Origin: Chitinophagaceae bacterium UBA4411 | GTDB lineage: Bacteria; Bacteroidota; Bacteroidia; Chitinophagales; Chitinophagaceae | DNA: 64,000 nt | Direction of reading: 5' to 3' | Assembly: GCA_002400415.1 (NCBI GenBank) | Contig: DGQP01000007.1 | Span: 77,373 to 141,372 of the forward strand | Part shown: piece by piece, positions 33,619-35,508 of the stretch | How the letters are laid out: the number at the start of each line of letters is the position of its first letter | Position numbering within the stretch: position 1 is the stretch's first letter | Made by a program: the position numbers and the translations under genes | The notes under the pieces: generated by a model | Databases searched by the model: none | Seen by the model: only the letters and a program-made list of their open reading frames with translations | What the model was told of the DNA's origin: nothing

Positions 33619-33699
33619 ATGAGCAAGTTAAAATTAAGTGGAAAAGAGTTGCGGGCTATCGGTTTCCCGGATTGGGCAAAGAAAAAAATTTGTAGATAA
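33619..33699 (+). pseudogene. duplicated 5' fragment of rtcB (26 codons)
   Basis: Encodes MSKLKLSGKELRAIGFPDWAKKKICR*. The first 17 residues are nearly identical to the RtcB start at 35681 (MSKLKITGKELRAIGFPEG). Confidence 0.55.
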
Positions 33700-34445
33700 T
33701 GGAAAAGATAAAAAGTATACTAACTAATATTCAGTTAAAGAACAATATCAAAATACTCTACGCCTGTGAAACAGGCAGCCGGGCCTGGGGCTTTCCATCT
33801 CCGGATAGTGATTTTGATGTGAGGTTTATCTACATGCATAAGCGAGACTGGTATTTGTCGTTAAGTAAAGTGAAGGACACAATCGAACATATGGACGGCG
33901 ATCTGGACATAACTGGATGGGATCTTAAAAAATGTTTGACTTTGTTAAAGAAATCTAATGTCCCTTTAATTGAGAGATTTCAATCACCGATTGAATATTA
34001 TGCGCAGCCGGGATTCAGGGAGGAGTTCAAGGAGCTGATAACAGCTTATTATTCTCCGACTGCTGTATTCTTTCATCATCATTCATTGGCAAAGAAGTTT
34101 TGGGAGGATATAAAAGATGCGGATCAGGTGAAGCTGAAGAATTGGTTTTACCTGGTCAGGTCATTGTTGTCGTGTAATTGGATAATTGAGGATAAGTCGG
34201 TACTGCCGATGCATTTCGAAGGCTTGTTGAAGTATACAGAGGAAGGTATGAAGGCTGAATTGAGGGAATTGGTGGAATTAAAGGCTACTGTTGGTGAAAA
34301 ATATTTGCATCCACGGGATGAAAGATTGAATAAGTGGATAGTTGATTTGTTTGACAAAGTGGGGACAGGAAAAAACGTACTGGGAGTTAATAATACAGAC
34401 ATGAAATTATTGAATGACTTCTTTTTAAAGAAACTATATGAATAA
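33699..34445 (+). CDS. pol-beta superfamily nucleotidyltransferase (COG3541/YcgL-like)
   Basis: YACETGSRAWGFPSPDSDFDVRF matches the hG[GS]-x9-13-[DE]h[DE]h nucleotidyltransferase signature. Confidence 0.55.
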   Translation: MEKIKSILTNIQLKNNIKILYACETGSRAWGFPSPDSDFDVRFIYMHKRDWYLSLSKVKDTIEHMDGDLDITGWDLKKCLTLLKKSNVPLIERFQSPIEYYAQPGFREEFKELITAYYSPTAVFFHHHSLAKKFWEDIKDADQVKLKNWFYLVRSLLSCNWIIEDKSVLPMHFEGLLKYTEEGMKAELRELVELKATVGEKYLHPRDERLNKWIVDLFDKVGTGKNVLGVNNTDMKLLNDFFLKKLYE

Positions 34446-35508
34446 ATTGACTATCGGGGATATAAAGAAGCAAGGGTTACTGGTAATGGAAGTAATAACC
34501 GGGAGCAGGGCATATGGGTTGGAAACTGCAACTTCAGATACGGATATCAGGGGTGTTTTCGTATTGCCAAAGGACATGTATTATGGGTTAGAATATACCG
34601 GGCAGGTAAATAATGAAACGAACGACATTGTTTATTATGAACTGAGACGTTTCATGGAATTGTTGCTGAGGAATAATCCTAATATAATGGAGATGTTAAA
34701 TACTCCGGCGAATTGTGTATTGTTGAAGCATCCAATGATGGACCTGTTAAAACCTTCAATGTTTCTGTCAAAGCTATGTGAGCAAACATTTGCCAACTAT
34801 GCCTATACACAAATTAAGAAAGCATACGGTCTTGAAAAGAAGATTGTGAACCCAGTAGATGAAACGAGGAAGTCGGTACTGGATTTTTGTTTTGTATATG
34901 AAGGCCGGGATGCAATTCCTTTAGAAAAATTTCTGGAGTCAAAGGGCCTCGATCAGCAAATGGCGGGTTTGGCAGCAATATCTCATTTGAGAGATTGCTA
35001 CAACTTATTCTACTCGACTGAGTTTAGATATTCTGGTATCATGCGAAAGGAAGAGTCAAACGATGTAGCATTAAGCAGCATCCCAAAAGGGGAAATGCCA
35101 ATAGCAATGTTATACTTTAATAAGGATAGCTATTCAGTTTACTGTAAGAAGTATAAGGAGTATTGGGATTGGGTGGGAAAAAGAAACGAAGAACGATATA
35201 AAACAACTATGACGCATGGTAAGAACTATGATTCAAAGAACATGATGCATGTTTTCAGACTACTGCGAATGGCCAGGGAGATTGCAATGGACGGTCAGAT
35301 TAATGTTTTCAGGACCGACAGACAGTTTCTGTTGTCAGTCAAGGAGGGAAAGTTTGAGTATGATGATCTTTTACAGCAAGCAGAAGCATTGAAAATAGAA
35401 TTACCAGTTTTGTATAACAATTCAACTTTGCCTGACAAACCAGATATGGATGTCGTTGAAGATCTGTTGATTAAAATGAGAGAAACCTATTATGGAGAAA
35501 TAAAATGA
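34438..35508 (+). CDS. pol-beta superfamily nucleotidyltransferase (second, paralogous, larger C-terminal domain)
   Basis: VITGSRAYGLETATSDTDIRGVF carries the same nucleotidyltransferase signature. Overlaps the preceding gene by 8 nt, suggesting translational coupling. Confidence 0.55.
   Translation: MNKLTIGDIKKQGLLVMEVITGSRAYGLETATSDTDIRGVFVLPKDMYYGLEYTGQVNNETNDIVYYELRRFMELLLRNNPNIMEMLNTPANCVLLKHPMMDLLKPSMFLSKLCEQTFANYAYTQIKKAYGLEKKIVNPVDETRKSVLDFCFVYEGRDAIPLEKFLESKGLDQQMAGLAAISHLRDCYNLFYSTEFRYSGIMRKEESNDVALSSIPKGEMPIAMLYFNKDSYSVYCKKYKEYWDWVGKRNEERYKTTMTHGKNYDSKNMMHVFRLLRMAREIAMDGQINVFRTDRQFLLSVKEGKFEYDDLLQQAEALKIELPVLYNNSTLPDKPDMDVVEDLLIKMRETYYGEIK

Follow-up and report, generated by a model that had tools for sequence, protein, structure and literature searches.

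A stretch of 64,000 nucleotides (nt) from the Chitinophagaceae bacterium UBA4411 (contig DGQP01000007.1, positions 77,373 to 141,372; the whole stretch is called the window below) carries two overlapping genes, here named RlaP1 and RlaP2, upstream of the RNA ligase gene rtcB. Both encode members of the RlaP nucleotidyltransferase family with intact catalytic sites. The two genes are translationally coupled, are paired in related genomes and lie among RNA-repair genes, and in Verrucomicrobiota the same two subtypes are fused into one polypeptide. We consider it likely that RlaP1 and RlaP2 are active RlaP enzymes working as one two-site unit, and that this unit extends the 3'-OH ends of damaged RNA without a template before the RNA is resealed.

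Both genes encode RlaP nucleotidyltransferases

Two same-strand open reading frames (ORFs) were found at 33699–34445 (+), encoding RlaP1, a short canonical RlaP nucleotidyltransferase of 248 aa, and at 34438–35508 (+), encoding RlaP2, a long RlaP subtype of 356 aa. In agreement with the initial annotation of this DNA, which had described two overlapping nucleotidyltransferase ORFs, the ATG of RlaP2 lies inside the 3' end of RlaP1, and an 8-nt overlap runs from the RlaP2 start codon to the RlaP1 stop codon (ATGAATAA, 34438–34445). This overlap implies translational coupling. A scan for sigma-70 promoters and terminators was uninformative for this organism.

The sole Pfam family matched by both proteins was PF10127 (RlaP), the "RNA repair pathway DNA polymerase beta family" of RNA ligase-associating Pol-beta proteins. 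The gathering score of this family is 23 bits. RlaP1 scored 233.9 bits (E = 3e-69), with residues 3–243 covering model positions 4–248 of 249, and RlaP2 scored 89 bits (E = 5e-25) over its N-terminal 114 residues only (residues 16–129). In PHROGs, RlaP1 was assigned to the nucleotidyltransferase family phrog_14344 (E = 1e-57) and RlaP2, over its full length, to the nucleotidyltransferase family phrog_388 (E = 7e-51).

The pol-beta signature that had been read in both proteins is present in each as G-S-x10-D-x-D. The catalytic set consists of G26 S27, D38 and D40 (motif D38 F D40) and the third carboxylate D70 in RlaP1, and of G22 S23, D34 and D36 (motif D34 T D36) and the third carboxylate D63 in RlaP2. 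The G-S pair, the D-x-D motif and the third Asp were at least 95% conserved among 61 RlaP1 and 67 RlaP2 orthologues from related loci. The C-terminal part of RlaP2 is divergent and contains the conserved motifs YCKkYKEYWdWV and HgKnYDxKNMMH. Three long-type homologues (P0267, P0348 and P0386; 702–780 aa) carry intein-like insertions at the C-terminal Y-D|S-K-N-M-M-H motif, and because the insertions sit there the motif may be functionally critical.

Neither protein matched, even at E ≤ 10, the profiles of CCA enzymes, PolyA_pol/poly(A) polymerases (PF01743), AbiEii/MenT (PF08843) or KNTase, and neither matched a PADLOC defence profile. NCBIfam gave only a sub-threshold match to MntA_antitoxin (16.3 bits against a cut-off of 60) and no CCA-enzyme match. 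Classification by hidden Markov models, which had been suggested as a check, thus placed both proteins in RlaP, and no confident assignment to an antibiotic or other non-RNA nucleotidyltransferase class was obtained. Because RlaP membership goes together with the lack of CCA, MenT/AbiEii, defence and antibiotic-nucleotidyltransferase matches, the proposal that the pair serves RNA 3'-end repair holds; the family adds one or two nucleoside monophosphates (NMP) to RNA 3'-OH ends (PMC12776372).

The initial annotation had offered MenT/AbiEii-type toxins as an alternative. A nucleotidyltransferase toxin of this kind, with or without an MNT-type antitoxin, would block tRNA charging; it would have the generic pol-beta fold in common with RlaP1 and RlaP2, and the MntA_antitoxin match, although below threshold, points in the same direction. 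We consider this explanation extremely unlikely. Besides the lack of AbiEii/MenT and PADLOC matches, no antitoxin-like partner, whether of the AbiEi/MenA or the HEPN type, adjoins the pair, whose neighbours are a 237-aa protein and RtcB. RlaP1 and RlaP2 are each 70–80% conserved across Chitinophagaceae genera, unlike the turnover typical of toxin-antitoxin systems, and work so far on family members has shown aminoacylation of the repaired tRNA to be restored and not blocked (PMC12776372).

The AlphaFold2 (AF2) model of RlaP1 (predicted local distance difference test [pLDDT] 84, predicted template modelling score [pTM] 0.81) shows a nucleotidyltransferase domain and a helical domain, with a beta-sheet core followed by helices at residues 106–247, including a terminal helix at 236–247. 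In these two domains the model agrees with the published description of the Pseudomonas fluorescens enzyme (PfRlaP). The PfRlaP crystal structure has an N-terminal nucleotidyltransferase domain and a C-terminal helical domain, the last helix being packed back onto the nucleotidyltransferase domain (PMC12776372). A PDB sequence search with RlaP1 and RlaP2 matched no RlaP structure. The nearest PDB folds of the RlaP1 model by Foldseek were ANT(4') kanamycin nucleotidyltransferase and Hailong HalB, as would be expected if the proteins were aminoglycoside/lincosamide nucleotidyltransferases or a defence oligonucleotide-signal synthase such as HalB. However, these folds match weakly (template modelling score [TM] 0.43–0.47, root mean square deviation [rmsd] 6.7–10.5 Å, 10–14% identity). 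The best match, 6un8_B (TM 0.47, rmsd 6.7 Å, 11% identity), is a superfamily-level likeness, and the likeness to aminoglycoside nucleotidyltransferases (TM 0.45, 11% identity) is one of fold. No sequence-profile match to the ANT or HalB families was found, the genomic context is one of RNA repair and not of resistance, and neither PfRlaP nor its P. aeruginosa counterpart (PaRlaP) labels proteins or DNA (PMC12776372). A role in small-molecule modification or signalling is therefore hardly credible.

RlaP1 and RlaP2 represent two RlaP subtypes

The two proteins had also been called paralogous. BLASTP showed 29% identity over 73 residues, and a profile–profile comparison aligned 82 columns within the nucleotidyltransferase core only, leaving the C-terminal half of RlaP2 unaligned to RlaP1. 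Phage homologues of RlaP1 were found mainly in phiKZ-like Pseudomonas jumbo phages, with few others, and those of RlaP2 in Lak megaphages, CR3-like phages (Cronobacter phage CR3), Tenacibaculum phages and others. Of the two proteins, RlaP2 is the one closer to T4 NrdC.11, which it resembles in the nucleotidyltransferase core and weakly in the C-terminal D-x-K...H region. The phage distribution and the likeness to NrdC.11 thus indicate that two diverged RlaPs were brought together and argue against a recent tandem duplication. Judged from their sequences, RlaP1 and RlaP2 are two anciently diverged subtypes and not recent duplicates, so that the word paralogous is right for a distant kinship and wrong for recent tandem copies.

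RlaP2 shares its full-length family with the long-type RlaPs of phages (phrog_388), whose carriers, like T4, have RNA-repair functions (PMC7824862). The phage genes differ in being solitary, and their products have only 30–40% identity to RlaP2. The gene that precedes the long-type RlaP of Tenacibaculum phage PTm1 was tested as a hidden short-type RlaP and is not an RlaP.

The pair is conserved in order and fused in Verrucomicrobiota

In a genome scan with one genome per species, an RlaP2 relative was found at 73 loci. Nearly all of these belong to Bacteroidota (Chitinophagaceae, Flavobacteriaceae and Cytophagales), and 58 of the 73 were long enough to judge the neighbourhood. An RlaP1 relative lay directly upstream of RlaP2 on the same strand in 57 of these 58 loci. 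Among 62 pairs with both ORFs resolved, 42 overlapped by 1–29 nt, 5 were at 0–4 nt and 16 were at 80–600 nt; in several of the widely spaced pairs the RlaP1 reading frame was broken. Both genes were fragmentary in two Niabella loci (L066 and L071). In a metagenome scan with an 11-sequence alignment as the query, 80 loci were kept, all at least 51% identical to RlaP2, and the short-then-long order was found in 52 of 56 independent loci. Between Chitinophagaceae and Flavobacteriaceae, identity was 56–65% for RlaP2 and 36–44% for RlaP1, making RlaP2 the better conserved partner.

A search with RlaP2 that covered 1.84 billion representative proteins found a 619-aa fusion protein (P0247). Its residues 7–252 are of the RlaP1 type (31% identity to RlaP1, full Pfam model) and its residues 272–616 of the RlaP2 type (43% identity to RlaP2). 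At least 120 protein clusters of 598–646 aa covered 97–100% of this fusion, with the RlaP1-type part followed by the RlaP2-type part, and all the named ones were from Verrucomicrobiota (Luteolibacter, Roseibacillus and Akkermansiaceae). Both G-S / D-x-D / D sets were invariant in 31 aligned fusions. Fusions such as those of Luteolibacter ambystomatis (P0397) and Roseibacillus persicicus (P0417) contain the same subtypes in the same order with both sites kept, whereas the window has two overlapping genes in place of one polypeptide. In databases they are annotated merely as 'nucleotidyltransferase domain-containing protein'. A fusion in the same order with both sites kept is, in our view, strong comparative evidence for joint action of the two subtypes, as a single unit in which both active sites work.

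In Luteolibacter (L160, 10001–20277), the fusion gene lies near rtcR, Ro60, rtcB and rtcA: it is divergent to rtcR, and on its other side come the Ro60 gene (vWA_Ro60), then, past a gap of about 1.1 kb, two small genes and finally rtcB and rtcA. The gap after Ro60 could hold Y RNAs. The Roseibacillus fusion gene stands alone.

Activity of the family and proposed role of the pair

Burroughs and Aravind (NAR 2016) gave the RlaP family its name, after the linkage to RNA ligases, as related in a later preprint (PMC12776372). Their prediction, as cited in subsequent papers, was that RlaP restores nucleotides lost from cleaved RNAs or tRNAs ahead of ligation (PMC7824862, PMC6514570, PMC12776372). 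Carruthers, Fatma and Huang (bioRxiv, December 2025, PMC12776372) characterised the enzymes of P. fluorescens and P. aeruginosa, each encoded by one gene between rtcB and rtcA. PfRlaP and PaRlaP add 1–2 NMP to RNA 3'-OH ends in vitro, prefer or require Mn2+, and show little specificity for the nucleoside triphosphate (NTP). On an annealed tRNA mimic, the preferred 3' end is the one at the break in the anticodon loop, the acceptor 3' end being disfavoured, and RlaP can restore aminoacylation to a tRNA that is short of one nucleotide (PMC12776372).

The pair in the window resembles the RlaP of these Pseudomonas rtcB-rlaP-rtcA operons in its PF10127 membership, with RlaP1 spanning the whole 249-position model, in the same G-S / D-x-D / D set, probably, to judge by the RlaP1 model, in the architecture of a nucleotidyltransferase domain and a helical domain, and in its linkage to RtcB. 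The operons differ in having a single RlaP, whereas the window has two translationally coupled subtypes, and in including rtcA, whereas the neighbours in the window are a tRNA array, an SPFH protein and an AAA ATPase.

By analogy with these family members, the addition of 1–2 NMP, the Mn2+ dependence and the preference for break sites may be carried over to RlaP1 and RlaP2. In the role that we propose, the two proteins, which are made together from the overlapping reading frames, would most likely form one unit with two active sites, as a heteromer in the window organism and as a single fused polypeptide in Verrucomicrobiota. This unit would extend damaged RNA at its 3'-OH by one or two nucleotides without a template, its main substrates being tRNA halves trimmed after cleavage in the anticodon loop. 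Once the correct length had been restored, a ligase such as the adjoining RtcB would reseal the RNA. The pair would be one module of a variable RNA-damage-response island of Bacteroidota, the other modules being spare tRNA genes, RtcB, the SPFH protein, the AAA ATPase, and Y-RNA-like and tRNA-like RNAs. The steps of this scheme that we infer are that RlaP1 associates with RlaP2, that labour may be divided between them, that tRNA is the substrate in vivo and that the product is handed to RtcB.

Several points weigh against this proposal. The hand-off to RtcB meets a mismatch of ends: the product of RlaP carries a 3'-OH, but the end that RtcB requires is a 3'-phosphate or 2',3'-cyclic phosphate, an incompatibility raised by the authors of the preprint themselves (PMC12776372). 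Neither RtcA nor a 3'-kinase is encoded in the window, and rtcR is likewise not present. The position of RtcB varies among the related loci: it is upstream or downstream of the pair, and in 13 of 58 loci it is not found within 10 kb, so that the RtcB link is looser than the link between RlaP1 and RlaP2. The known biochemistry is that of PfRlaP and PaRlaP, which are single short-type enzymes, and the AF2 model of RlaP2 is poor (pLDDT 64). The long type is solitary in 4 of the 56 metagenome loci, with no short-type RlaP within 6 kb, and in Tenacibaculum phage PTm1 it has no adjoining RlaP1-type gene. The short and long subtypes also occur mostly in different phage groups. Since long types are found alone and the phage groups differ, neither subtype strictly needs the other.

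These solitary genes, and the phages in which each subtype is found by itself, would also be expected if the pair consisted of two independent RlaP enzymes with complementary specificities, for nucleotides or for RNA ends such as the anticodon-loop break and the acceptor 3' end, which form no complex and are kept in step by co-expression. The full catalytic sets in both proteins and the 80–600 nt that separate the genes in 16 of 62 pairs are compatible with this. Independent action is plausible, but we judge it to be rather unlikely. The order of the two genes does not vary, in most pairs they overlap or adjoin, the large same-order fusion family with both sites invariant is a classic sign of physical or obligate functional association, and the Niabella loci L066 and L071 have only fragments of both genes. 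A stricter form of the two-site unit is an obligate RlaP1–RlaP2 heterodimer, fused in Verrucomicrobiota, in which two different active sites divide the work; this is conceivable, and we put it forward tentatively. The sites might divide the first and the second nucleotide, differ in base preference, or serve the anticodon-loop break and the acceptor end of the same tRNA. If true, such divided labour could turn non-specific single RlaPs into a more accurate tRNA-restoring machine, and it might bear on the mismatch between the 3'-OH product and the 3'-phosphate required by RtcB.

The RlaP family comprises more than 10,000 proteins; it had already been named and has recently been characterised, and its activity was first reported in late 2025, for single short-type enzymes only. 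The pair is no new kind of system. The new elements, to judge by the literature that could be searched, are the heterotypic RlaP pair, which is conserved, and its fused counterpart. PMC12776372 has no mention of RlaPs in tandem, as a pair or fused, and none of the papers searched, which did not include Burroughs and Aravind (2016), describes a tandem arrangement. The 2025 preprint left open the near-absent nucleotide specificity of the enzymes and the unfitness of their 3'-OH products for RtcB. A heterotypic pair that is fused in another phylum with both catalytic centres kept is a distinct two-site form of RlaP. It is a natural target for biochemistry and structure determination, and a first candidate for study of the long, T4 NrdC.11-like subtype.

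Genomic context and the tRNA array

As the initial annotation had stated, the pair lies immediately upstream of RtcB. The rtcB gene (35681–37144, +), encoding a 487-aa RNA ligase (PF01139, E = 2.5e-79, residues 103–467), starts after a spacer of 172 nt past the end of RlaP2. The suggested link of the pair to RNA repair is also borne out, both proteins being RlaPs, a family tied to RNA ligases, with rtcB adjoining. RtcB has a conserved N-terminal extension of about 95 residues (35681–35965) outside the Pfam model, with the motif K-I-T-G-K-x-L-x-x-L/I-G-F; the extension is found in both RtcB types of the related loci.

The RlaP1-RlaP2-RtcB genes end a same-strand run. It begins with a tRNA array (27602–29106, +) of 10 tRNAs called by ARAGORN plus further tRNA-like elements. 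This is followed by genes for a PF04308 RNaseH-like protein (29132–29617, +) and an AAA ATPase (29721–30791, +), a spacer with RNA elements (30925–31065, +), an SPFH/Band-7 gene (31428–32573, +) and a gene for a 237-aa protein of no assigned family (32816–33529, +).

Features were counted within 10 kb of the pair in the 58 long genome loci. RtcB, of two types and either upstream or downstream, was present in 45 loci, a divergent WYL-WCX regulator on the opposite strand in 34, and same-strand arrays of 4–19 tRNAs in 32. The PF04308 RNaseH-like protein was found in 21 loci, SPFH in 18, the AAA ATPase in 14, a PrfH-like release factor in 10 and TROVE/Ro60 in 7. The island around the pair is variable and modular, and its sole near-invariant link is that of RlaP1 with RlaP2. 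A DUF434/DUF5616 protein was encoded in 9 pair-bearing loci. The window contains no WYL-WCX regulator, PrfH-like release factor or DUF434/DUF5616 protein.

The initial annotation had noted that most array tRNAs lack an encoded CCA, and ARAGORN confirmed this for 9 of the 10, tRNA-Phe alone having one. Genes of this kind are normally served by the host CCA enzyme. RlaP1 and RlaP2 could instead be dedicated CCA-adding or CCA-repair enzymes for the array tRNAs. In Aquifex, Deinococcus and Synechocystis, CC-adding and A-adding activities are split between a pair of enzymes, and in these bacteria, as might be the case here, a single RNA 3' end is the joint target of two related pol-beta nucleotidyltransferases. 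The likeness is an analogy, with no homology beyond the superfamily: the split enzymes are class II CCA enzymes of another family, are not encoded by overlapping genes and each have a defined nucleotide specificity. RlaP does extend RNA 3'-OH ends, and its substrates in total E. coli RNA include full-length RNAs of tRNA size (PMC12776372). However, additions by characterised RlaPs are limited to 1–2 nt, discriminate little among NTPs and are disfavoured at the acceptor 3' end of an annealed tRNA mimic (PMC12776372). Neither protein matched a CCA-enzyme or poly(A)-polymerase profile, about 26 of the 58 related loci have the pair but no nearby array, and a listing of the protein-coding genes around the verrucomicrobial fusion shows an RtcR-Ro60-RtcB-RtcA locus. 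A CCA-adding function is thus very unlikely, and we retain the repair of damaged RNA ends by a two-site unit as the preferred explanation.

Long tRNA arrays associated with rtcB and with translational stress have been described in cyanobacteria, in a study that lists Bacteroidetes among the phyla with L-arrays (PMC8421152). As in the window, a horizontally spread array is linked there to RtcB and to translational stress or tRNA cleavage. RlaP-type nucleotidyltransferases are not mentioned in that study (the string 'nucleotidyl' has 0 occurrences), and the cyanobacterial arrays are characterised by regulation via direct repeats in promoters (PMC8421152). An island in which spare tRNA genes and RNA-repair genes are combined recurs in Bacteroidota, with the pair as its marker, and extends the tRNA-array/RtcB link reported for cyanobacteria (PMC8421152).

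Some tRNAs of the array are unusual: tRNA-Asn (28441–28533) has a 21-nt insert in the variable region, tRNA-Gln (27920–28014) has a 29-nt insert in the T-loop, and tRNA-Lys is 93 nt long. Rfam detected elements that ARAGORN did not call, namely type-II-like tRNAs at 28537–28620 and 28626–28710 and a mini-tRNA-like remnant at 28887–28943. A hairpin motif, GCCTGCC..GGCAGGC, is repeated at 28313, 28492, 28971 and 30865. In the spacer between the AAA ATPase and SPFH genes (region 30925–31065), a tRNA-like element (RF00005, 29.6 bits) overlaps a sub-threshold match to YrlA (Y-RNA-like) at 30945–31056 (36.9 bits, E = 1.5e-5; the gathering score is 69). More than a dozen related loci have conserved segments of this spacer. 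A Ro60/TROVE protein is encoded in some related loci and not in the window.

Upstream of the array, on the same strand, lie genes for a 2H/LigT-like phosphoesterase (22552–23163), a PD-(D/E)XK protein (23102–23563) and a radical SAM protein (23819–24928), the last of which recurs in 3 related loci. A HEPN-domain protein is encoded downstream, on the other strand, at 39936–40778 (-).

The truncated rtcB copy and the RlaP2–rtcB spacer

As had been described, the pair is flanked by a truncated copy of the 5' end of rtcB on one side and by the complete gene on the other. The copy is 53 nt long (33619–33671) and 87% identical to the first 53 nt of rtcB (35681–35733), the first 18 codons of RtcB being the part duplicated upstream of RlaP1. 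It belongs to a 26-codon remnant ORF (33619–33699, +; MSKLKLSGKELRAIGFPDWAKKKICR*), whose TAA stop codon overlaps the ATG of RlaP1 (TAATG). A tblastn search with the RtcB N-terminus found the extra copy in the window only and in none of the 73 related loci, and the fragment was therefore rejected as a conserved leader peptide. It is most likely a scar of a cassette rearrangement and not a functional leader.

The spacer between RlaP2 and rtcB (35509–35680, +) contains a long imperfect hairpin at about 35585–35665 (fold z-score -2.8). A 59-codon ORF (35505–35684, +) bridges RlaP2 and rtcB with ATGA start/stop overlaps at both ends and is annotated by gene callers on some identical contigs (L074 and L075). 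As a unit, the spacer is not conserved in the other loci, and it has no Rfam match; it was therefore rejected as a conserved RNA or small gene, and for lack of conservation the 59-codon ORF is probably not a gene. Two segments with 78–80% identity (repeat families D1 and D4) are common to 35502–35669 and the array spacer at 28755–28880, where they occur in permuted order. They include an exact 22-mer and a 20-nt pattern, for which 0 occurrences were expected by chance, and could represent a shared regulatory or repeat element.

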